This document shows, piece after piece, positions 3,238 through 34,178 of a DNA stretch of 34,178 bases. Position 1 is the first letter of the stretch, and each line of letters starts with the position of its first letter. Source of the DNA: a virus (Duplodnaviria; Heunggongvirae; Uroviricota; Caudoviricetes). Both the position numbers and the translations under genes were made by a program. The notes below the pieces were generated by a model. That model had not been told where the DNA came from. It made no database searches and saw nothing but the letters and a program-made list of their open reading frames with translations. The DNA is taken from the IMG/VR virus record IMGVR_UViG_2526164598_000024. The stretch is one strand, 5' to 3'.

Positions 3238-3509
3238 GTATTCGTATTGAAATTGGCGAACGTTATGTCGTTACCAGTGACAGCTTTCAGTTTATTCTCC
3301 ACGAGAAAAAGAGAGCGGAAAGCGGTAAAAACGCCGGTCAGGAATGGCTGGCGGTGGTTGGTTATTACCCGAAATTAGGCCAGCTCGTTTCCGGCCTGAT
3401 GCATCACGATATTCTGACCGGAAGCGCAAAATCTTTTGCTGATTTAAACGCGCAGGTTGAGCAACTCAGCAAGCGTTGTTCAGAGGCTTTTGGCTCATAT
3501 GGCCGTTAA
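3234..3509 (+). CDS. Small early protein (P2 orf83-like)
   Basis: 91-aa ORF, ATG at 3234 overlapping previous stop; synteny. Confidence 0.55.
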   Translation: MSIRIEIGERYVVTSDSFQFILHEKKRAESGKNAGQEWLAVVGYYPKLGQLVSGLMHHDILTGSAKSFADLNAQVEQLSKRCSEAFGSYGR

Positions 3510-5775
3510 AGCCTCCGGGCGTTTTGTCCCTCCGTCAGCATTTACCGCAGGCACCGGTAAGGCGTTTACCGGTGCTTATGCATGGAACGCGCCACGCGAG
3601 GCTGTCGGGCGCGAAAGACCTCTTACACGTGACGAGATGCGTCAGGTGCAAGGTGTTTTATCCACGATTAACCGCCTGCCTTACTTTTTGCGCTCGCTGT
3701 TTACTTCACGCTATGACTACATCCGGCGCAATAAAAGCCCGGTGCACGGGTTTTATTTCCTCACATCCACTTTTCAGCGTCGTTTATGGCCGCGCATTGA
3801 GCGTGTGAATCAGCGCCATGAAATGAACACCGACGCGTCGTTGCTGTTTCTGGCAGAGCGTGACCACTATGCGCGCCTGCCGGGAATGAATGACAAGGAG
3901 CTGAAAAAGTTTGCCGCCCGTATCTCATCGCAGCTTTTCATGATGTATGAGGAACTCTGCGATGCATGGGTTGATGCGCATGGTGAAAAAGAATCGCTGT
4001 TTACGGATGAGGCGCAGGCTCACCTGTATGGTCATGTTGCTGGCGCTGCACGTGCTTTCAATATTTCCCCGCTCTACTGGAAAAAATACCGTAAAGGACA
4101 GATGACCACGAGGCAGGCATATTCTGCCATTGCCCGTCTGTTTAACGATGAGTGGTGGACTCATCAGCTTAAAGGCCAGCGTATGCGCTGGCATGAAGCG
4201 TTACTGATAGCTGTCGGGGAGGTCAATAAAGACCGTTCTCCTTATGCCAGTAAACACGCCATTCGTGATGTGCGTGCGCGCCGCCAGGCAAATCTGGAAT
4301 TTCTTAAATCGTGTGACCTTGAAAACAGGGAAACCGGCGAGCGCATCGACCTTATCAGTAAGGTGATGGGCAGTATTTCTAATCCTGAAATTCGCCGGAT
4401 GGAGCTGATGAACACCATTGCCGGTATTGAGCGTTACGCCGCCGCAGAGGGCGATGTGGGGATGTTTATCACGCTGACCGCACCGTCAAAGTATCACCCG
4501 ACACGTCAGGTCGGAAAAGGCGAAAGTAAAACCGTGCAGCTTAATCACGGCTGGAACGATGAGGCATTTAATCCAAAGGATGCGCAGCGTTATCTCTGCC
4601 GTATCTGGAGCCTGATGCGCACGGCATTCAAGGATAATGATTTACAGGTTTACGGTTTGCGAGTCGTCGAGCCACACCACGACGGAACGCCGCACTGGCA
4701 TATGATGCTTTTTTGTAATCCACGCCAGCGTAACCAGATTATTGAAATCATGCGTCGCTACGCGCTCAAAGAGGATGGCGACGAAAGAGGAGCTGCGCGA
4801 AACCGTTTTCAGGCAAAACACCTTAACCGGGGCGGTGCTGCGGGATATATCGCGAAATACATTTCAAAAAACATCGACGGCTATGCACTGGATGGTCAGC
4901 TCGATAACGATACCGGCAGGCCGCTGAAAGACACTGCCGCGGCTGTTACCGCATGGGCGTCAACGTGGCGCATTCCGCAATTTAAAACGGTTGGCCTGCC
5001 GACAATGGGGGCTTACCGTGAACTACGCAAATTGCCTCGCGGCGTCAGCATTGCTGATGAGTTTGACGAGCGCGTCGAGGCTGCACGCGCCGCCGCAGAC
5101 AGTGGTGATTTTGCGTTGTATATCAGCGCGCAGGGTGGGGCAAATGTCCCGCGCGATTGTCAGACTGTCAGGGTCGCCCGTAGCCCGTCGGATGACGTTA
5201 ACGAGTACGAGGAAGAAGTCGAGAGAGTGGTCGGCATTTACGCGCCGCATCTCGGCGCGCGTCATATTCATATCACCAGAACGACGGACTGGCGCATTGT
5301 GCCGAAAGTTCCGGTCGTTGAGCCTTTGACTTTAAAAAGCGGCATCGCCGCGCCTCGGAGTCCTGTCAATAACTGTGGAAAGCTCACCGGTGGTGATACT
5401 TCGTTACCGGCTCCCACACCTTCTGAGCACGCCGCAGCAGTGCTTAATCTGGTTGATGACGGTGTTATCGAATGGAATGACCCGGAGGTCGTGAGGGCGC
5501 TCAAAAGCGCATTAAAACACGGCCTGAGAAGACCAAACCGTCAGCAAAGAAACGGAAACCCGTTAAAACCACATGAAATTGCACCATCGGCCAGACTGAG
5601 CCGGTCGGAGCGATTGCAAATCACCCGTATCCGCGTTGACCTTGCTCAGAATGGAATCTTGCCCCAGCGATGGGAGCTTGAGGCGCTGGCGCGTGGGGCA
5701 ACCGTAAATTATGACGGGAAAAAATTCACGTATCCGGTTGCTGATGAGTGGTCGGTTTTTTCAATTAAACAATAA
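3499..5775 (+). CDS. A: Replication initiation protein A (rolling-circle nickase)
   Basis: Large ORF (track 3457..5775); ATG at 3499 overlaps end of the upstream gene and gives about 758 aa, close to P2 gpA. Contains a tyrosine-rich motif region (AGYIAKYISKNIDGY) typical of rolling-circle initiators. Confidence 0.85.
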   Translation: MAVKASGRFVPPSAFTAGTGKAFTGAYAWNAPREAVGRERPLTRDEMRQVQGVLSTINRLPYFLRSLFTSRYDYIRRNKSPVHGFYFLTSTFQRRLWPRIERVNQRHEMNTDASLLFLAERDHYARLPGMNDKELKKFAARISSQLFMMYEELCDAWVDAHGEKESLFTDEAQAHLYGHVAGAARAFNISPLYWKKYRKGQMTTRQAYSAIARLFNDEWWTHQLKGQRMRWHEALLIAVGEVNKDRSPYASKHAIRDVRARRQANLEFLKSCDLENRETGERIDLISKVMGSISNPEIRRMELMNTIAGIERYAAAEGDVGMFITLTAPSKYHPTRQVGKGESKTVQLNHGWNDEAFNPKDAQRYLCRIWSLMRTAFKDNDLQVYGLRVVEPHHDGTPHWHMMLFCNPRQRNQIIEIMRRYALKEDGDERGAARNRFQAKHLNRGGAAGYIAKYISKNIDGYALDGQLDNDTGRPLKDTAAAVTAWASTWRIPQFKTVGLPTMGAYRELRKLPRGVSIADEFDERVEAARAAADSGDFALYISAQGGANVPRDCQTVRVARSPSDDVNEYEEEVERVVGIYAPHLGARHIHITRTTDWRIVPKVPVVEPLTLKSGIAAPRSPVNNCGKLTGGDTSLPAPTPSEHAAAVLNLVDDGVIEWNDPEVVRALKSALKHGLRRPNRQQRNGNPLKPHEIAPSARLSRSERLQITRIRVDLAQNGILPQRWELEALARGATVNYDGKKFTYPVADEWSVFSIKQ

Positions 5776-5976: not shown

Positions 5977-6921
5977 ATGCCAACAGTAGTTTCACTTTTT
6001 TCTGGATGCGGTGGTTCCGATGCGGGGGTTCTGAGAGCTGGCTTTGATGTGCTTATGGCCAACGATATCTTGCCGTATGCGCGCGATGTTTATATTGCCA
6101 ATCATCCAGAAACTGATTACATTTTAGGCAATATTGCTGATGTAACTACTTTTCCTAAATCTGATTTGCTAGTAGGTTGTTATCCATGTCAGGGATTCAG
6201 CCAGGGTGGTGCGCGTAAGGCCGATCGAAAAATTAATACTCTTTATTTAGAGTTTGCTAGAGCTTTAAACAATATAAAGCCTAAAGCTTTTATAGTAGAA
6301 AACGTGTCTGGTATGGTTAGAAAAAACTTCGAGCATTTGTTATCTGACCAGATCAGGGTTTTTACTGAAGCAGGTTATGCTGTTTCAGCAAAAGTTTTGA
6401 ATGCGGCTGAATATGGAGTAGCGCAGGAAAGAAAAAGAATATTTATCGTAGGAATCCGTAATGATTTCAAAGTTAAGTACGAGTTCCCTCAGCCAACTCA
6501 TGGGCCGGCGACTGGCGTCAACTATGTTACTATTAAAGATGCTATAGGGCATTTACCTGAATGGCCAGAAGGTGAATTTTATGATATGGGGTTCCATTGG
6601 TATTATATGTCTCGCAATCGTCGCCAAGATTGGGATCAAATTTCAAAGACAATAGTTGCTAATGCAAGGCATATGCCGTTGCATCCTATCAGTCCTTCGA
6701 TGGAGAAAGTAAGAACTGATGAATGGAGGTTTGTTGAGGATCGGAGAGCTCGCAGATTCAGTTTTCGAGAGGCAGCACTATTACAAGGGTTTGAGGATCT
6801 AGTGTTTCCCGAAACAAATGCTGCAAGTCTTGGCATGAAATACACGGTGGTTGGTAATGCAGTGCCTCCGCCGCTTTTTGAAGCTGTAACGAAGGCATTG
6901 CCAATAGAATTATGGGATTGA
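5977..6921 (+). CDS. DNA (cytosine-5)-methyltransferase, Dcm family
   Basis: 314 aa; canonical C5-MTase motifs visible: FSGCGG (motif I, AdoMet binding), PCQGFS (motif IV catalytic Cys), IVENVSGM (motif VI), QERKRIFIVG (motif VIII), GNAVPPPL (motif X). Strong Shine-Dalgarno AGGAGG before ATG 5977. AT-rich compared with phage backbone. Confidence 0.9.
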   Translation: MPTVVSLFSGCGGSDAGVLRAGFDVLMANDILPYARDVYIANHPETDYILGNIADVTTFPKSDLLVGCYPCQGFSQGGARKADRKINTLYLEFARALNNIKPKAFIVENVSGMVRKNFEHLLSDQIRVFTEAGYAVSAKVLNAAEYGVAQERKRIFIVGIRNDFKVKYEFPQPTHGPATGVNYVTIKDAIGHLPEWPEGEFYDMGFHWYYMSRNRRQDWDQISKTIVANARHMPLHPISPSMEKVRTDEWRFVEDRRARRFSFREAALLQGFEDLVFPETNAASLGMKYTVVGNAVPPPLFEAVTKALPIELWD

Positions 6922-6928
6922 TAAGCTA

Positions 6929-7921
6929 TTAAGGCTCTGGATTTAATGTATAAAGTTCTTCTTCAAATTCGCGAAACCAATCAGAGGTAGTTATCGCTTC
7001 CCATTGGTTTGCCTTATCAAGTAGATATATGATCCTCAACCTATCTAATAATAATACACCAGCGGTTGCATGTGTGCTTACCCATTCGCCATTTGCTTCC
7101 CGATAGAAAACAGGCGTGAACATTGTTGATGGATGCTGGAAAGCAATTTGGAAATAGGTGGTCAGTTTTAACACGTTAGCCTCTAATGTTTTGCTTGGCC
7201 ACCCTGTTTCTTGTGCACCACATTGACCAAGAATTCCATAGTTGCTAGTTTGACCATCAGGAAATTCCACTGTAGCAATTAGGTCAAACCCAGCATCACC
7301 AGATGTGGGAGCTTTATTTATTTCCCTTGTGTTTAAACTACAAACTCCAAGATCTTTTCCTAAAATTTGTAGAGCATTCCGAAGATTCGTTCCATAATAT
7401 TTTTGCCTATCATCGGAGTTAGCATCAAAAATTCTTACGGTGCCATGTGCAGGTAAGAGAGAAATCATTGCAACTTTACATACTCTGGCAAAGCTCTTTG
7501 CCCAACGTTGTGCTGCTCCTCTAATCGACTTAAAGGATCTAAGTCTAGAGCAACAAAGGAGAAAAACATATATTCTTTGTTGTTGGTTTAGATTTTCTTT
7601 AATAATTATCTCATCACCTGAAATTATAAATGGATATATCTTTCCAAGAGCGCTTTCTCTATATTCGAGTTGTGTCCAAACATCTTCTAGTTGCTCTTCA
7701 AAACGATCATTTCTCTCTGCGTCTCCATCAATTTCTTCTTCAAAATTACATTCTTCATCAATTTCTTCAACACTTGTCATGCCGAATTTTCTTACTGAAT
7801 CTAAATCATTTTTATGCAGAGAGTTACGTCCGATATAATTAATCACCGTGAGTAACTCGGCTAAATCTGCAAACAAATGGGGAGAGTTGGGATGCATAAC
7901 TCCTACTTCAAAAGTCATCAT
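6929..7921 (-). CDS. Hypothetical protein, 330-aa, candidate nuclease/effector partner of the adjacent methyltransferase and ParB-like gene
   Basis: Long uninterrupted minus-strand ORF in AT-rich DNA; ATG at 7921/7918 preceded by GAGGTG; converges on the MTase with only a 7-bp gap between stop codons; overlaps the end of the upstream ParB-like gene by about 14 bp (operon-like). No motif I can assign with confidence. Confidence 0.7.
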   Translation of the reverse strand: MMTFEVGVMHPNSPHLFADLAELLTVINYIGRNSLHKNDLDSVRKFGMTSVEEIDEECNFEEEIDGDAERNDRFEEQLEDVWTQLEYRESALGKIYPFIISGDEIIIKENLNQQQRIYVFLLCCSRLRSFKSIRGAAQRWAKSFARVCKVAMISLLPAHGTVRIFDANSDDRQKYYGTNLRNALQILGKDLGVCSLNTREINKAPTSGDAGFDLIATVEFPDGQTSNYGILGQCGAQETGWPSKTLEANVLKLTTYFQIAFQHPSTMFTPVFYREANGEWVSTHATAGVLLLDRLRIIYLLDKANQWEAITTSDWFREFEEELYTLNPEP

Positions 7922-8350
7922 CACCTCTGCTATTTTTCTCTGCTATTTCAGAACCTATAAGCTTAATATGTTTATTGATTCTTCGTGCTACTTCATGAGC
8001 CTGTCTATCATACTCTACTGTGGCAACCATGCCTGCTGCATCTATCAAAGCCGCTTCAACTTGATAAAGTAACTGGAGAAAGTCCTTAGTAATATCAGAT
8101 GTCAATTGGTAGGCCACTGCGAGTGGAGCCCCCATTCGGAATTGCTCCAATGCCTTAGGGCTACTAACAACAGCAGCTAATTCTCTTAAATTACGTGACT
8201 CTCCAACACGAGTTTTTTTATCCTCACCTTTTTTATATAACCACTCAGTTAGCTCTTTTATTTCTTTGTTCTTTAAGCTATTAGAGTTGATAATAGGATG
8301 ACTTGGTATTGTGTCTCCATCGTCTTCGATTGAAACTCCGACAAATTGGC
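7908..8350 (-). pseudogene. C-terminal fragment of ParB/Srx-domain protein gene split by IS2
   Basis: Reading frame continues exactly from the N-terminal fragment (9682..10365) once IS2 and one TTGGC copy are removed: ...ERLGQ|FVGVSIEDDGDT.... The track ORF 7908..8387 borrows an in-frame GTG start inside the IS2 right end. Confidence 0.8.
8346..8350. repeat. IS2 target-site duplication TTGGC (copy 1)
   Basis: 5-bp direct repeat immediately flanking the IS2 terminus at 8351; identical to 9682..9686. Confidence 0.85.
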
Positions 8351-8361
8351 TGGATTTGCCC

Positions 8362-9267
8362 CTATATTTCCAGACACCTGTTATCACTTAACCCATTACT
8401 GGCCTGCTGCCGCAGATATTCCCGTGGCGAGCGATAACCCAGTGCACTATGCGGATGCCATTCGTTATAATGCTCGAACGCCTCTGCAAGGTTCTTTGCT
8501 GCCGTTAACCCGTCTGGTTTAGGCATGATACTGATGTAGTCACGCTTTATCGTTTTCACGAAGCTCTCTGCTATGCCGTTACTCTCCGGACTCCGCACCG
8601 CCGTGTTCTTCGGTTCAAGCCCCAACATCCGGGCAAACTGCCGTGTTTCATTAGCCCGGTAGCATGAACCATTATCCGTCAGCCACTCTACTGGAGACGC
8701 CGGAAGCTCGTTGCCGAAGCGGCGTTCCACCGCTCCCAGCATTACGTCCTGTACTGTTTCACTGTCGAAGCCGCCCGTAGTGACTGCCCAGTGCAGTGCC
8801 TCACGGTCACAGCAGTCCAGCGCGAACGTGACTCGCAGTTTTTCTCCGTTATCACAGCGGAACTCGAACCCGTCAGAGCACCATCGTTGATTGCTTTCTT
8901 TCACGGCCACTTTGCCAGTATGTGCCCGTTTCGATGGCGGTACAGCGGTTTTTCGCTCAAGCAACAGCGCATTCTGGCGCATGATCCGGTAAACACGTTT
9001 GGCATTGATCGCAGGCATACCATCAAGTTCGGCCTGTCTGCGAAGCAGCGCCCATACCCGACGATAACCATACGTGGGCAGCTCTCCGATAACATGGTGT
9101 ATACGGAGAAGCACATCCGTATCATCTGAGTGACGGCTGCGGCGACCATCTTTCCAGTCATCGGTTCGTCTGAGAATTACGTGCAACTGCGCACGCGACA
9201 CCCGGAGACAACGGCTGACTAAGCTTACTCCCCATCCCCGGGCAATAAGGGCGCGTGCGCTATCCAC
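8362..9267 (-). CDS. insD: IS2 transposase OrfB (InsD), DDE integrase domain
   Basis: 301-aa ORF inside IS2; recognisable IS2 InsD sequence (..[20 protein letters not shown]..); overlaps insC as expected for -1 frameshift fusion. Confidence 0.9.
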
Positions 9268-9590
9268 TTTTTTGCACGCCCGTATTCAACGGCTTCTTTA
9301 AGGAGTTCATTTTCCATCGTTTTTTTGCCGAGCAGGCGCTGGAGTTCTTTAATCTGCTTCATGGCAGCAGCAAGTTCAGAGGCAGGAACGACCTGCTCTC
9401 CTGCGGCCACAGCAGTAAGACTTCCCTCCTGGTATTGCTTGCGCCAGAGAAATAACTGGCTGGCTGCCACACCGTGTTGCCGGGCAACAAGGGAGACCGT
9501 CATTCCCGGTTCAAAACTCTGCTGAACAATAGCGATCTTTTCCTGTGTAGTACGCCGTCTGCGTTTCTCCGGTCCTAAGACATCAATCAT
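9225..9590 (-). CDS. insC: IS2 transposase OrfA (InsC), HTH DNA-binding
   Basis: ATG at 9590 gives 121 aa starting [18 protein letters not shown], recognisable as IS2 InsC; track ORF extends further upstream to an earlier start. Confidence 0.9.
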
Positions 9591-9678
9591 CTGCTCTCCA
9601 ATGACTAGTCTAAAAACTAGTATTAAGACTATCACTTATTTAAGTGATATTGGTTGTCTGGAGATTCAGGGGGCCAGT

Positions 9679-10365
9679 CTATTGGCCTAACCGCTCATCA
9701 GCAAGTGCTGTTGATAATACTGAAAATTTAATCGTTTCTTCATCTAGTTTTTCAATACCATAAAAATCATTTTCTTTAATGATTTCATACACCGCTAAAG
9801 CGTCTAGGTTACGCTTGATATGATCCCTACGACTGCCAATAGCTCTGGCAACCTCATAGTAGCGTAGCATCGGATCCTGATTTGCATTGGTATAATCAAA
9901 AAGCTGTTTAATATATCGAGCTTTTGATAAGGGCTCCCATTGTTTGACACCAGTAATATGTCTGAAACCAAGATACGGAAGAATCTCTTCTCTTGTTTGG
10001 CGCTCAATGACAGGAACACGATCGACTGTATGTTTTGCATTTGATGCAATTTCTCGTAGTCGAGCACTTGGATTTTCACATAGTGTCGGATCGCGTAATA
10101 ATTTAACTGCGGATAGGCGACGGTTTCCTTCAACTACAATGTACTTCCCCGGCGCGACACTGTCAGGAATGACAATCAATGGTTCTCCAGGGAAAAAACC
10201 ATTTTCCGCAATAGCACTCATTAGATCTTCGATAGATGTTGAGGTTGCTATGTAGTTAATCATTCCCAATTGGTCACGAGACACGCCTTCAGGAAGTCTT
10301 GGGTTTTCTGTGTCAAGTTCCAAATCATCTAGCGGAACATAAAGTATTTCTGAATCAGCAATCAT
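9679..10365 (-). pseudogene. N-terminal fragment of ParB/Srx N-domain protein gene, truncated by IS2 (stop codon supplied by IS2 terminus)
   Basis: 228-aa ORF with ATG at 10365 and GGAG Shine-Dalgarno; contains ParB-box-like motif IVVEGNRRLSAVKLL (GxxRxxA arginine patch of ParB/sulfiredoxin fold). The TAG stop at 9679..9681 is the first three bases of IS2 (TAGACTGG...). Confidence 0.8.
9682..9686. repeat. IS2 target-site duplication TTGGC (copy 2)
   Basis: Identical 5-mer to 8346..8350, directly abutting the other IS2 terminus. Confidence 0.85.
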
Positions 10366-10779: not shown

Positions 10780-11814
10780 TCAGCCGTTGTCAGTGTCCAG
10801 TGAGTAGTTTTTAAAGCGGATGACCTCCTGACCGAGCCAGCCGTTTATCTCGCGGATCCTGTCCTGTAACGGGATAAGTTCATTGCGGACAAAGACCTTT
10901 GCCACTTTCTCAATATCACCCAGCGACCCGACGTTCTCCGGCTTGCCACCCATCAACTGAAAGGGGATGCGGTGCGCGTCCAGCAGGTCAGCGGCGCTGG
11001 CTTTTTTGATATTAAAAAAATCGTCCTTCGTCGCCACTTCACTGAGGGGGATAATTTTAATGCCGTCGGCTTTCCCCTGTGGGGCATAGAGAAACAGGTT
11101 TTTAAAGTTGTTGCGGCCTTTCGACTTGACCATGTTTTCGCGAAGCATTTCGATATCGTTGCGGTCCTGCACGGCATCGGTGACGTACATGATGTATCCG
11201 GCATGTGCGCCGTTTTCGTAATACTTGCGGCGGAACAGCGTGGCCGACTCATTCAGCCAGGCAGAGTTAAGGGCGCTGAGATATTCCGGCAGACCGTACA
11301 GCTCCTGATTAATATCCGGCTCCAGCAGGTGAAACACGGAGCCGGGCGCGAAAGGTGTCGGCTCGTTGAAAGACGGCACCCACCAGTAAACATCCTCCTC
11401 CACGCCACGACGGGTATATTTGGCCGGTGAGGTTTCCAGTCTGATGACCTTACCGGTGGTGCTGTAACGCTTTTCCAGAAACGCATTACCGAACACCAGA
11501 AAATCCAGCACAAAACGGCTGAAATCCTGCTGGGAAAGCCACGGGTGCGGGATAAACGTTGAAGCCAGAATATTACGTTTGACGTAAATCGGTGAGCTGT
11601 GATGCACGGCAGCACGCAGACTTTTTGCCAGGCCGGTAAAGCTGACCGGTGGCTCATACCATCTGCCGTTACTGATGCACTCGACGTAATCCAGAATGTC
11701 ACGCCGGTCGAGTACCGGTACCGGCTCACCAAAGGTGAATGCCTCCATTTTCGGGGCGCTGGCGGTCATTGTTTTTGCCGCAGGTTGCGGTGTTTTCCCT
11801 TTTTTCTTGCTCAT
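10780..11814 (-). CDS. Q: Portal protein
   Basis: 344-aa ORF, ATG at 11814 overlapping the terminase stop (ATGA); divergent from O/N/M as in P2; length equals P2 gpQ. Confidence 0.9.
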   Translation of the reverse strand: MSKKKGKTPQPAAKTMTASAPKMEAFTFGEPVPVLDRRDILDYVECISNGRWYEPPVSFTGLAKSLRAAVHHSSPIYVKRNILASTFIPHPWLSQQDFSRFVLDFLVFGNAFLEKRYSTTGKVIRLETSPAKYTRRGVEEDVYWWVPSFNEPTPFAPGSVFHLLEPDINQELYGLPEYLSALNSAWLNESATLFRRKYYENGAHAGYIMYVTDAVQDRNDIEMLRENMVKSKGRNNFKNLFLYAPQGKADGIKIIPLSEVATKDDFFNIKKASAADLLDAHRIPFQLMGGKPENVGSLGDIEKVAKVFVRNELIPLQDRIREINGWLGQEVIRFKNYSLDTDNG

Positions 11815-25218: not shown

Positions 25219-26118
25219 ATGAGTGGTATTCGTATAACTCAGGCTATTGATAACAATCAGATTTTAGTCAATGTAAATACTTTTAATTATAGTGTTAATC
25301 CCTATCCACTCAAATGTCCTGACCCAAATTGCTCTGCTCATTTGGTGTATGTCAAAAGCCATATTCGTCGGAGTTTTAATAAAACCTTGCATATCCCCGC
25401 CTTCTTTAGACTGGAAAAAAATTTCACGCATGACAAATTATGTCAGTATGGAACTTCAGGATTGAATACAATTTATGCAAGTGATTCCAGTCATGATATC
25501 AGCCGTGCGCTTGCCACAGGTAATAATATATTCCGTATACATATACTCGATGAAGATGATATCTCTAAATTAAGCAGAAAAGCTGCAGCTATGCAGGCAA
25601 ATCCACCTTCTGATACTACAGACCGCGTTTATGTCAAGAGAGGTCGGAAAGCCCCCTATGTGAAGAACATGGATAGCTTACGGGAGATCTATGAATATGG
25701 AAAAGCTCACCCCAACAAGAGAAACAGCATAAAAATTGTTACTGGAACAAGTACTGTAACGTGGTCTGATTTTTTCTATGAAACAACGCAGTTAGAACGA
25801 TTGTCAACTTACCTCCAGAAAGTAAAAATAGCTCAGGTTGCTGTAATTATGAAAGTGCATGTGGCGAGAATCCCTATGGCGAAATTTAATTATCGACACT
25901 TCATTGAAGGTTCGCCAATGAGGATAAAAGGGGGCTTTAATATATATCCTACGATTCAATTAGGAAATGTTACTCCAAAATTATTTCCGTTGAGTAGCAT
26001 TGTCATGGTACTCGGTAAATTTACTATTCCAACAAATAGAAAAATGATAATGGATCCAACATTTGAGCGTGAAGTCAGAACCATAGTTTCTAGTGAAGAG
26101 CAAGTGCTAATTCTTTGA
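25219..26118 (+). CDS. Hypothetical protein in the Z/fun cargo locus (candidate phage-exclusion/defence gene)
   Basis: 299-aa ORF with strong GGAGGA Shine-Dalgarno, visibly AT-rich, flanked by long non-coding spacers between G and FI (the P2 Z/fun position). N-terminal Cys/His cluster (CPDPNCSAHLVYVKSH). May be the P2 Z/fun homologue; I cannot confirm from memory. Confidence 0.65.
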   Translation: MSGIRITQAIDNNQILVNVNTFNYSVNPYPLKCPDPNCSAHLVYVKSHIRRSFNKTLHIPAFFRLEKNFTHDKLCQYGTSGLNTIYASDSSHDISRALATGNNIFRIHILDEDDISKLSRKAAAMQANPPSDTTDRVYVKRGRKAPYVKNMDSLREIYEYGKAHPNKRNSIKIVTGTSTVTWSDFFYETTQLERLSTYLQKVKIAQVAVIMKVHVARIPMAKFNYRHFIEGSPMRIKGGFNIYPTIQLGNVTPKLFPLSSIVMVLGKFTIPTNRKMIMDPTFEREVRTIVSSEEQVLIL

Positions 26119-31097: not shown

Positions 31098-31577
31098 ATG
31101 ATGCTCGCGTTAGGTATGTTTGTTTTTATGCGCCAGACGCTGCCACACCAGACCATGCAGCGTGAATCAGATTATCGCTGGCCGTCAAATTCCCGTATCG
31201 GTAAACGGGATGCCTACCAGTTTCTCGGCGTTGGCGAGGAAAACATGACGCTGGCCGGTGTGCTTTATCCCGAACTGACCGGCGGCAAGCTGACGATGAC
31301 CACGCTCAGGCTGATGGCAGAGGAAGGTCGGGCGTGGCCGTTGCTGGATGGCACCGGCATGATTTACGGCATGTATGTCATCAGCAGGGTGAGTGAAACA
31401 GGGAGTATTTTCTTTGCAGACGGCACACCCCGAAAAATTGATTTTACGCTGTCGCTCACCCGCGTTGACGAATCACTGGCCGCGCTTTATGGCGATATCG
31501 GTAAACAGGCGGAATCGCTCATCGGTAAGGCTGGCAGTATGGCGACTAAATTCACAGGTATGACGGGGGCGGGATAA
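31098..31577 (+). CDS. U: Tail protein U
   Basis: 159 aa; AGGAGG Shine-Dalgarno; P2 gpU length. Confidence 0.85.
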   Translation: MMLALGMFVFMRQTLPHQTMQRESDYRWPSNSRIGKRDAYQFLGVGEENMTLAGVLYPELTGGKLTMTTLRLMAEEGRAWPLLDGTGMIYGMYVISRVSETGSIFFADGTPRKIDFTLSLTRVDESLAALYGDIGKQAESLIGKAGSMATKFTGMTGAG

Positions 31578-32740
31578 TGCTGGATGCACTGACATTTGAT
31601 GCAGGCAGTACGCTGACGCCGGATTACATGCTGATGCTCGACAGCAGGGATATTACCGGCAATATCAGCGACCGTCTAATGAGCATGACTCTGACGGATA
31701 ACCGGGGCTTTGAGGCTGACCAGCTTGATATTGAACTGAACGATGCCGACGGGCAGGTCGGGCTGCCGATTCGTGGCGCTGTCCTGACGGTGTATATCGG
31801 CTGGAAAGGTTTTGCCCTGGTATGCAAAGGGAAATTTACCGTTGATGAGGTTGAACACCGGGGCGCGCCGGATGTGGTCACCATCCGCGCCCGGAGTGCA
31901 GATTTTCGCGGGACGCTCAATTCCCGCCGTGAAGGCTCCTGGCATGACACCACGCTCGGTGCGATTGTTGAGGCAATAGCCTCCCGTAACAGGCTGGAAG
32001 CCAGTGTCGCGCCGTCACTGGCCGGAATTAAAATCCCGCACATCGACCAGTCGCAGGAGTCTGATGCAAAATTCCTGACCCGCCTTGCTGAACGCAACGG
32101 CGGTGAGGTGTCGGTAAAAATGGGAAAATTGTTGTTTCTCAAAGCGGGGCAGGGGGTGACGGCCAGCGGTAAAAAAATCCAGCAGGTCACCATCACCCGC
32201 AGCGACGGCGACCGTCATCATTTTGCGATTGCTGACCGTGGAGCCTACACCGGCGTAACGGCAAAGTGGTTACACACCAAAGACCCGAAGCCGCAAAAGC
32301 AGAAGGTAAAACTGAAACGCAAAAAGAAAGAGAAACACCTGCGCGCACTGGAGCACCCGAAAGCGAAACCGGTCAGGCAGAAGAAAGCGCCAAAAGTACC
32401 GGAAGCGCGCGAAGGTGAATACATGGCCGGTGAGGCTGACAACGTTTTTGCCCTGACCACGGTATATGCCACGAAAGCACAGGCCATGCGCGCCGCTCAG
32501 GCTAAGTGGGATAAACTGCAACGGAGTGTAGCAGAGTTCTCCATCAGCCTGGCTACCGGTCGGGCCGATATTTACACGGAAACACCGGTTAAAGTGTCAG
32601 GCTTTAAGCGCGTCATAGACGAGCAGGACTGGACAATCACTAAGGTGACACATTTTCTTAATAATAGCGGCTTCACGACGTCCTTAGATCTTGAGGTCAG
32701 GCTTTCTGATGTGGAGTACGAAACAGAAGATGATGAGTGA
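31577..32740 (+). CDS. D: Tail protein D (late gene D)
   Basis: 387 aa; ATG overlaps U stop (TAATG); P2 gpD length; internal Lys-rich stretch. Confidence 0.85.
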   Translation: MLDALTFDAGSTLTPDYMLMLDSRDITGNISDRLMSMTLTDNRGFEADQLDIELNDADGQVGLPIRGAVLTVYIGWKGFALVCKGKFTVDEVEHRGAPDVVTIRARSADFRGTLNSRREGSWHDTTLGAIVEAIASRNRLEASVAPSLAGIKIPHIDQSQESDAKFLTRLAERNGGEVSVKMGKLLFLKAGQGVTASGKKIQQVTITRSDGDRHHFAIADRGAYTGVTAKWLHTKDPKPQKQKVKLKRKKKEKHLRALEHPKAKPVRQKKAPKVPEAREGEYMAGEADNVFALTTVYATKAQAMRAAQAKWDKLQRSVAEFSISLATGRADIYTETPVKVSGFKRVIDEQDWTITKVTHFLNNSGFTTSLDLEVRLSDVEYETEDDE

Positions 32741-32821
32741 TGTTTTTATTTTATCTGTTTGTTTTGTAAGGATAAATTAACTAAAATGACACCATCAACA
32801 AAACCGGAAGAGGTGCTCGCG

Positions 32822-33040
32822 ATGTTTCATTGTCCTTTATGCCAGCATGCCGCACATGCGCGTACAAGCCGCTATATCACTGACACGACAAAAGAGCGTT
32901 ATCACCAGTGTCAGAACGTGAATTGCAGCGCCACGTTCATCACTTATGAGTCGGTGCAGCGATACATCGTGAAGCCGGGAGAAGTCCACGCCGTAAGGCC
33001 GCACCCGTTGCCGTCAGGACAGCAAATTATGTGGATGTGA
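32822..33040 (+). CDS. ogr: Late transcription activator Ogr (C4 zinc finger)
   Basis: ATG at 32822 gives 72 aa MFHCPLCQHAAHARTSRYITDTTKERYHQCQNVNCSATF... with the CxxC-N22-CxxxxC zinc-binding pattern; recognisably Ogr; last phage gene before host DNA. Confidence 0.9.
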   Translation: MFHCPLCQHAAHARTSRYITDTTKERYHQCQNVNCSATFITYESVQRYIVKPGEVHAVRPHPLPSGQQIMWM

Positions 33041-33051
33041 TCACAAAAATA

Positions 33052-33076
33052 GCCCCTCAGTTGAGGGGCTTTATTT
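33052..33076 (+). terminator. Rho-independent terminator after ogr
   Basis: GC-rich hairpin GCCCCTCA-GT-TGAGGGGC followed by TTTATTT. Confidence 0.7.
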
Positions 33077-33167
33077 ATGGTCGATGTGGACGCTATGTGG
33101 ACAGAGTTTGATATAAATCCATTTATATCATCAGGTTAGGTGCTTTTTTGTGACACCATCCCTGTCT

Positions 33168-33194
33168 TCCCCCACATGATGTGGGGTTTTTTTT
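33168..33194 (+). terminator. Rho-independent terminator-like hairpin with T8 tract
   Basis: CCCCCACAT-GATGTGGGG stem followed by TTTTTTTT; may belong to the host gene upstream of fieF or to the att region. Confidence 0.6.
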
Positions 33195-33275
33195 ATCCTC
33201 AATTTGCCTGCTGCTTAATGCATTGCAGATGATTTGCTTCCGTTATACTAGCGTCAGTTGATAGCGGGAGTATTT

Positions 33276-34178
33276 ATGAATCAATCTTATGGACGGCTGG
33301 TCAGTCGGGCGGCGATTGCTGCGACGGCGATGGCTTCGTTGCTATTGCTGATTAAAATTTTTGCATGGTGGTATACCGGGTCGGTGAGTATTCTCGCCGC
33401 GCTGGTGGATTCGCTGGTGGATATCGGCGCGTCGTTGACGAATTTATTGGTGGTGCGATATTCCCTGCAACCTGCCGACGATAATCACTCGTTTGGTCAC
33501 GGTAAAGCTGAGTCCCTCGCGGCGCTGGCGCAAAGTATGTTTATCTCCGGTTCGGCACTATTCCTGTTTTTGACGGGTATTCAACATCTGATATCTCCAA
33601 CACCGATGACAGATCCAGGCGTCGGGGTTATCGTGACAATTGTGGCGCTAATTTGTACGATTATCCTTGTCTCGTTTCAGCGTTGGGTGGTGCGGCGGAC
33701 GCAAAGCCAGGCGGTGCGGGCTGATATGCTACATTACCAGTCTGATGTTATGATGAACGGCGCAATTCTGCTGGCGCTGGGGTTGTCCTGGTACGGCTGG
33801 CATCGCGCCGATGCTCTGTTTGCATTGGGAATCGGCATCTATATTTTATATAGCGCGTTACGCATGGGATATGAGGCGGTACAGTCATTACTGGATCGCG
33901 CATTGCCTGATGAGGAACGGCAAGAAATTATTGATATCGTGACTTCCTGGCCGGGTGTTAGCGGCGCTCACGATCTTCGCACGCGGCAGTCAGGGCCGAC
34001 CCGCTTTATTCAGATTCATTTGGAAATGGAAGACTCTCTGCCTTTGGTTCAGGCACATATGGTGGCGGATCAGGTAGAGCAGGCTATTTTACGGCGTTTT
34101 CCGGGATCGGATGTAATTATCCATCAGGACCCCTGTTCCGTCGTACCCAGGGAGGGTAAACGGTCTATGCTTTCATAA
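33276..34178 (+). CDS. fieF: Cation-diffusion-facilitator family metal efflux transporter FieF (YiiP)
   Basis: 300-aa protein starting [49 protein letters not shown]..., recognisable as E. coli FieF/YiiP; six hydrophobic helices then cytoplasmic C-terminal domain; marks host chromosome to the right of the prophage. Confidence 0.9.

Follow-up and report, generated by a model that had tools for sequence, protein, structure and literature searches.

The right attachment site of a P2-like prophage points to WPhi-type integration into the Escherichia coli sRNA gene cpxQ

Layout of the window and limits of the attachment core

The window, by which we mean the whole stretch of 34,178 nucleotides analysed here (IMG/VR record IMGVR_UViG_2526164598_000024), holds a complete P2-like prophage and a single host gene, fieF (Table 1). 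As a reading made from the sequence alone had recognised, the window starts at the stop codon of the integrase gene, and attL lies outside it. At the other end, positions 33041–33275 form exactly the spacer between ogr and fieF, the last of them being the base just before the fieF ATG. The sequence-only reading had taken fieF to be host DNA and had placed attR somewhere in this spacer. Both proposals hold: in a sibling genome fieF is followed by pfkA, and no phage genes are seen to the right of fieF there; within the spacer, a block common to phage and host is found at 33152–33197.

Two hairpins stand out in the spacer. The first, predicted to follow ogr as a terminator, is indeed present, and it aligns with the terminator annotated for the "ogr transcript and F operon" in the P2 record NC_001895. 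The second carries eight T residues on its 3′ side and equals the terminator of K-12 and BL21 except for one loop allele and a missing G. The DNA between the two hairpins is AT-rich as described (GC 0.35–0.38, against 0.52 for the window), although it is 98 bp long rather than the "about 150 bp" first given.

Table 1 Features of the window, with positions counted from its first letter
Feature	Position	Strand	Remarks
Integrase gene int	1–981	minus	Window position 1 is the int stop codon; 326 aa; Pfam Int_N and Phage_integrase
C-5 cytosine methylase	5977–6921	+	Cargo
Hypothetical gene	6929–7924	minus	Cargo
ParB-N / PD-Lambda-5_A-like gene	fragments 9679–10365 and 7908–8387		Split by an IS3-family insertion
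IS3-family insertion genes	orfA 9225–9635, orfB 8362–9267		
Gene D	31577–32740		Phage gene preceding ogr
ogr	32822–33040	+	Last phage gene, late transcription activator; Pfam Ogr_Delta 1e-21; annotated ogrK at the same place in sibling TW10590
ogr Rho-independent terminator	33051–33078	+	Terminator scan; 8-bp G+C-rich stem at 33051–33070, then a T-rich tail
P arm, arm-type integrase binding sites	33084–33103	+	Direct TGTGGAC repeats at 33085–33091 and 33096–33102, 11 bp apart; predicted by homology
AT-rich bend region homologous to the P2 IHF site	33110–33143	+	Aligns with the NC_001895 IHF protein_bind feature; GC 0.35
attR common core	33152–33197	+	46 bp; CpxQ nt 15–58 plus ATC; canonical length 47 bp
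Permitted strand-exchange segment	33152–33178	+	Bounded by the loop SNP; includes the dyad GACA-CCATCCC-TGTC
cpxP/CpxQ Rho-independent terminator copy	33170–33194	+	Hairpin 33170–33186, 7-bp stem (canonical 8 bp), 3-nt loop, T8
Undisturbed host DNA, fieF upstream/leader	33198–33275	+	Identical to the K-12 and BL21 empty sites
fieF, host CDF metal exporter	33276–34178	+	Pfam Cation_efflux and ZT_dimer; every listed E. coli chromosome carries a fieF annotation at the match

To delimit the core, a query spanning 33041–33500 was searched against 5,426 complete E. coli genomes, all of which match. The whole attR query aligns in 793 of these, which carry an occupied site. The 4,633 prophage-free genomes match only from 33152 (query base 112) rightwards and represent the empty site, whose discovery had been anticipated from an alignment to E. 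coli lacking the prophage. These host-only genomes align from 33152 to the end of the window, at 98.6–99.7% identity, which puts the junction far beyond chance. The claim that the prophage ends after ogr is borne out. In a search of a phage collection with ogr and the spacer, at least 39 P2-like phage genomes align only up to 33197 (query base 412), among them WPhi, L-413C, fiAA91-ss, P2_AC1 and the vB_EcoM-12474 phages. Since the host match begins at 33152 and the phage match ends at 33197, the segment between these two positions is the common core.

The canonical core, GACACCATCCCTGTCTTCCCCCACATGATGTGGGGGTTTTTTTTATC, is 47 bp long, and the window copy is short of one G in its run of five. 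The same 47-mer recurs at all four types of junction. BL21(DE3) has it exactly as attB, with the 5′ part of cpxQ to its left and the fieF leader to its right, and the attP of WPhi has an identical copy between the same P arm as in the window and the P′ arm. In the sibling lysogens TW10590, S7, AR435 and E-ge-1, where cpxP adjoins int, attL reads cpxP, the 5′ part of cpxQ, the 47-mer, the P′ arm and int, while attR of lysogens reads P arm, 47-mer and host-right DNA. A direct repeat shared by the two prophage ends had been expected, and in the siblings the 47-bp core is that repeat (the attL of the window lies outside it). The best sibling has an int 100% identical over 700 bp and an attR 99.8% identical to those of the window. 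In the window itself, fieF starts 79 bp to the right of the core and cpxP lies beyond the limits.

The core run reads G4T8 in the window, compared with the canonical G5T8, and G4T9 in the attR of TW10590, the closest relative. None of the 5,426 E. coli genomes is 100% identical over the attR stretch (best 99.8%). The missing G could be a real lesion private to the source genome, or it could be a homopolymer error of sequencing or assembly. Viewed together, the attR copies of the cpxQ terminator (33183–33194 in the window; L002 2143–2155) are eroding from G5T8 to G4T9 or G4T8, and the attL copies examined are all canonical. This erosion fits relaxed selection on a remnant, or else homopolymer sequencing error.

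Such changes might also be expected if the interval were the degenerate scar of a defective prophage that no longer excises, its attR having ceased to work. The base lost from G5T8, the G4T9 run of TW10590 and the IS3-family insertion in a cargo gene of the prophage all speak in that direction. However, the missing base lies to the right of the region in which strands are probably exchanged (see below), and a one-base homopolymer difference may have arisen in assembly. Core positions 1–35, like the arm sites and the IHF region, are intact and identical to those of WPhi attP, and int, cox, C and all morphogenesis ORFs are full-length. We therefore consider a non-functional scar unlikely, and we prefer to read the interval as the attR of a WPhi-type integration.

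The sRNA gene cpxQ as target and the segment of strand exchange

In the K-12 RefSeq annotation, cpxQ (b4716) occupies 4106330–4106387 (L001 1831–1888) and begins 10 nt past the cpxP stop codon. The core starts at L001 1845, which is nucleotide 15 of CpxQ, and ends 3 nt past the CpxQ 3′ end. Lying inside annotated cpxQ, it places the integration in an sRNA gene, not in plain intergenic DNA. The sequence-only reading had seen no tRNA and proposed an intergenic or protein-gene-proximal site. Its first part is confirmed, ARAGORN having detected neither a tRNA nor a tmRNA over the full window; its second part needs amending, given that the core lies in cpxQ, which is the cpxP 3′ UTR and terminator. 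Because the core overlaps the CpxQ 3′ end, the second of the two hairpins can be identified as the Rho-independent terminator shared by cpxP and CpxQ. That reading had correctly seen this hairpin, but took it for a separate feature, whereas it belongs to the attachment core itself and is common to phage and host.

RNase E cuts CpxQ out of the cpxP mRNA. The sRNA depends on Hfq and serves as the non-coding arm of the Cpx envelope-stress response (PMC9438474, PMC4817254), and its seed for nhaB and cfa is the 5′ end (PMC6755755). At the attL of the four lysogens, the full 58-nt cpxQ is present, with a predicted fold the same as that of K-12 CpxQ. At attR, phage DNA stands in place of nucleotides 1–14 and cpxP lies at a distance of 33 kb, while only stem-loop 1 and the terminator remain. 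A sigma-70 promoter scan found no promoter-like sites in 32700–33400, so an independently transcribed chimeric sRNA at attR is unsupported. Having lost nucleotides 1–14, standing 33 kb from cpxP and lacking a detectable promoter in that scan, the attR copy of cpxQ is therefore a remnant and not a second gene.

This arrangement closely resembles that of elements integrated into tRNA and tmRNA genes, such as phage 186 (tRNA-Ile), Fels-2/SopEPhi (ssrA) and HP1 (tRNA-Leu). There, too, the target is a small, structured and highly conserved RNA gene. The identity block begins at the crossover and reaches the 3′ end of this gene or just beyond it, so that the gene is rebuilt beside int, with a truncated 3′ copy left at the far end. 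Restoration of a gene 3′ end has been described for 186-type phages (PMC3448106), and rybB is listed as an insertion site (PMC3032704). The two types differ in their target, which is a tRNA or tmRNA in those elements and a 3′-UTR-derived regulatory sRNA, with a putative 7-nt-loop overlap, in ours. The cpxP–fieF attachment site of WPhi is already known. A partial literature search found no paper linking cpxQ with the WPhi site, prophage, attB or integration. CpxQ was named in 2016, after the WPhi site papers that we found (2011), and the overlap with cpxQ can be read straight from present-day annotation.

Rfam has no family named CpxQ. The sole match at the locus, RF02628 "Hrs1" (Hfq-regulated sRNA 1), lies on the strand opposite to cpxP/CpxQ; it scores below threshold in E. 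coli (28.8 and 41.4 bits) and above the gathering score in Mixta, Kalamiella and an Erwinia MAG (58–68 bits). The matched loci are 33129–33194 of the window (minus strand), L001 1816–1888, L020 5282–5355, L018 3532–3605 and L027 182–255. The reverse complement of the Hrs1 consensus resembles CpxQ, and Hrs1 looks, from this likeness, like a CpxQ homologue filed on the wrong strand.

A single-nucleotide polymorphism in the terminator loop helps to locate strand exchange. Core position 28 (window 33179) is C in K-12-like strains and A in all phage copies, in most E. coli and in 117 of 117 species-representative enterobacterial genomes examined. In the C-allele hosts AR435 and E-ge-1, attL has the A of the phage and attR the C of the host, which places the exchange to the left of 33179, within 33152–33178. 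A constructed attL query with C gave no full-length exact match among the 5,426 genomes. The phage origin of the attL 3′ end is evident, independently, in other genera as well, where the host reads T8-GCC but the junction beside a WPhi-like int reads T8-ATCAA. The C-allele genomes number 1,053, of which 895 are empty and 158 are lysogens that may descend from a few integration events and are not independent; the resulting occupancy (15.0%) is similar to that of the remaining genomes (~635 of 4,373, 14.5%), so the polymorphism does not hinder integration. The permitted segment contains the dyad GACA-CCATCCC-TGTC (33152–33166), which coincides with the predicted stem-loop 1 of CpxQ and its 7-nt loop. 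By analogy with anticodon-loop crossovers, GACA-N7-TGTC may provide the core-type sites that flank a 7-bp overlap.

Alternatively, strands could be exchanged in the terminator hairpin, with its perfect dyad CCCCCACAT/ATGTGGGGG acting as the two core-type Int sites and its loop as the overlap. Two points would suit this model: no other inverted repeat in the core is as strong as the terminator, and the P2 core is likewise the terminator end of an sRNA. However, 33179 would then fall within the overlap, and the C allele should depress integration, at odds with the nearly equal occupancy of the two host classes. Segregation of the heteroduplex should also yield the reciprocal combination attL(C)/attR(A), yet attL(C) occurs in 0 of the 5,426 genomes, a count to be read with the clonal relatedness of the lysogens and a possible bias of mismatch repair in mind. 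Exchange in the terminator thus seems unlikely to us, and the left part of the core, 33152–33178, is retained as the exchange segment.

Integrase, P arm and cargo of the prophage

The window Int shares 315 of 326 residues (97%) with WPhi Int, with no gaps, but its identity to P2 Int is only 52%. Over the first ~30 residues, which make up the arm-binding part, it is near-identical to P2 Int, whereas the core-binding residues 60–160 are divergent. The P arm agrees with this division. In an alignment with the P2 record, its TGTGGAC pair falls on the "Int P arm" protein_bind feature; WPhi attP has an identical pair, and the repeats match the P2-type arm consensus tgTGGaCa (PMC3448106). The motif shows no enrichment across the window, and it is the tandem pair at a conserved position that counts. 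Next to the P arm, a match to the IHF consensus, TATCATCAGGTTA, is found at 33126–33138 with one mismatch; taken alone, it is at chance level window-wide, and we infer IHF binding at 33110–33143 from homology to the site annotated in P2.

Positions 33041–33197 align with the ogr–attP region of WPhi (Peduovirus Wphi, AY135739 / NC_005056), with 46 of the 47 core positions in common. Across the P arm, the IHF region and the core, the two phages are the same but for 2–3 substitutions and the one G. They also share fieF as chromosomal neighbour, WPhi being represented by the prophage "Wphi1" in E. coli W. The same attP is carried by L-413C, fiAA91-ss, the vB_EcoM-12474 phages, several "Yersinia" P2-like phages and others, and L-413C is reported to have the same core as WPhi (PMC3448106). 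Previous work supports the location. The insertion-site list of the E. coli W genome paper gives "cpxP-fieF: Wphi1 (P2)" (PMC3032704), and the WPhi integration site has been placed at MG1655 coordinate 4104392 (Nilsson et al. 2011, PMC3448106). The sequence-only reading had raised the question of whether the junction corresponds to a known P2 chromosomal location; it is not P2's own site, but it is the published site of the heteroimmune relative WPhi. Adding the old-to-current offset, which we take to be 1,977 bp, converts the MG1655 coordinate to 4106369, which is inside the core. Karlsson et al. 2006 is the likely primary source for WPhi attB.

P2 itself is annotated (NC_001895) with the same att architecture, showing the ogr terminator, Int P-arm repeats, IHF site, core, Cox sites/P′ arm and int in the same order. 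Its core likewise consists of the 3′ terminator end of an Hfq-dependent sRNA. However, the P2 core is 27 bp long rather than 47 bp, differs in sequence and target gene, and has the opposite orientation relative to the sRNA: AAAAAATAAGCCCGTGTAAGGGAGATT corresponds, as reverse complement, to the final 27 nt of K-12 cyaR, located by the ogrK–yegZ remnant (locH region). The K-12 P2 remnant PR-X (L129 884–1512) starts 18 nt inside cyaR (L129 815–901), an overlap that supports a general pattern in which P2-like phages target sRNA 3′ ends.

Integration at one of the P2 sites (locI, locH, locII or locIII) through a P2 integrase and the 27-bp core can be set aside almost entirely. In its favour, the prophage resembles P2 in gene order and in most late genes, its ogr terminator, P-arm Int sites and IHF region give a good alignment to P2 attP, and the cpx–fieF region is near what we take to be the classical map position of P2 location II. 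However, the P2 core from the end of cyaR is absent at the junction and the window Int is far closer to that of WPhi, so that the P2 loc sites are rejected on core sequence and Int identity. We instead hold it to be very probable that the interval is an attR (P-O-B′) formed when a WPhi-type P2-like phage integrated into E. coli cpxQ.

The prophage differs from WPhi in its cargo, which comprises Dcm and an IS-disrupted PD-Lambda-5-like pair. This cargo region (5977–10365) lies between replication gene A (3457–5775) and the portal gene (10780–11814). In the sibling prophage of TW10590, the PD-Lambda-5_A-like gene is intact (373 aa), and a different IS3 copy is present in a tail-fibre gene. A 299-aa ORF at 25219–26118, in a Z/fun-type variable spot between the tail-fibre assembly and tail sheath genes, is annotated as hypothetical in TW10590 and has no Pfam or PADLOC match. 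At L008 32885–35040, the WPhi-type prophage of E. coli AR435 has an IS150 copy and a hypothetical gene of 213 aa, both placed between ogr and the P arm, which shows that the ogr–attP spacer can carry cargo; two further insertion sequences of this prophage are ISEc12, in gene A, and ISEc22, near the tail fibre genes.

Distribution of the site and a proposed mechanism

This int is found in 789 and the full attR in 793 of the 5,426 complete E. coli genomes (~15%). Beyond E. coli, an exact 36-nt core pattern occurs in 117 stretches of one-genome-per-species contigs, spread over Escherichia, Salmonella, Citrobacter, Klebsiella, Raoultella, Enterobacter, Kosakonia, Yokenella, Kluyvera, Lelliottia, Mixta, Kalamiella, Erwinia and others. 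Most of these (95/117) are empty cpxP–core–fieF sites and one is an attR. Nine have a WPhi-like int (66–98% identity) 110–140 bp past the core, or 28 bp in the case of one truncated int remnant. The attB is near-invariant in more than 100 enterobacterial species because it is cpxQ, which presumably also accounts for the 47-bp identity. The target is thus conserved on account of being CpxQ, and the integrase–target pair is used across the family.

The cpxQ–fieF spacers of Citrobacter, Salmonella arizonae and others contain 0.7–2 kb of extra DNA with one to three ORFs (L044 1081–3000; L100 5035–6570; L058; L112; L023). In C. amalonaticus P55, this spacer holds a 373-aa ORF and a 157-aa ORF. Some of the spacers begin with a P′-arm-like "ATCAAnnACTTAG" but are without an integrase. 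These spacers resemble remnants or islets that stayed behind where the phage attaches.

These comparisons suggest a model of WPhi-type integration. The attP is ordered as ogr terminator, two arm-type Int sites, IHF-bending region, 47-bp core, P′ arm and int, its core being a phage-borne copy of CpxQ nucleotides 15–58 plus 3 nt, which covers stem-loop 1 and the cpxP/CpxQ terminator. Int, a tyrosine recombinase, probably exchanges strands in the left part of the identity block (33152–33178), possibly in or beside the 7-nt loop of the GACA/TGTC dyad, much as tRNA-targeting integrases use the anticodon loop. After integration, attL has cpxP and, as the sibling lysogens show, a complete cpxQ, the 3′ portion of which is supplied by the phage. 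The attR retains a 5′-truncated, promoterless cpxQ remnant that has no 5′ seed and is fused to phage DNA. The terminator of this remnant then stands between ogr and the untouched fieF promoter region, where it may act as an insulator.

Lambda offers the classical parallel: its tyrosine integrase has both arm-type and core-type sites, IHF bends its P arm, and a small DNA-binding protein, Xis, sets the direction of recombination, the analogue of Xis in the window prophage being Cox. The lambda core, located between gal and bio, measures 15 bp and restores no gene. The 47 bp kept identical in the WPhi type, by comparison, go far beyond the needs of recombination and are presumably maintained to preserve cpxQ and its terminator.

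A bolder version of the model, which we regard as quite improbable, holds that the WPhi-type Int uses CpxQ stem-loop 1 in the manner of an anticodon loop and swaps the 3′ two-thirds of the sRNA for the phage allele, and that readthrough from ogr at attR produces a chimeric Hfq-binding RNA that perturbs the Cpx circuit during induction. If this were true, every lysogen (~15% of E. coli) would make CpxQ with a 3′ end and terminator that come from the phage, and a chimeric attR RNA with a phage-derived 5′ end would be read from ogr in late transcription.

The comparisons fix the prophage boundary to the base and assign the element to the WPhi integration type. The "intergenic" cpxP–fieF site of the older literature is the sRNA gene cpxQ, which becomes the third case, after cyaR and rybB, of P2-like phages attaching at the 3′ ends of genes for Hfq-dependent sRNAs. 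This matters for the annotation of prophage boundaries and for work on CpxQ in natural isolates, ~15% of which have a CpxQ 3′ end donated by a phage, together with a truncated second copy.
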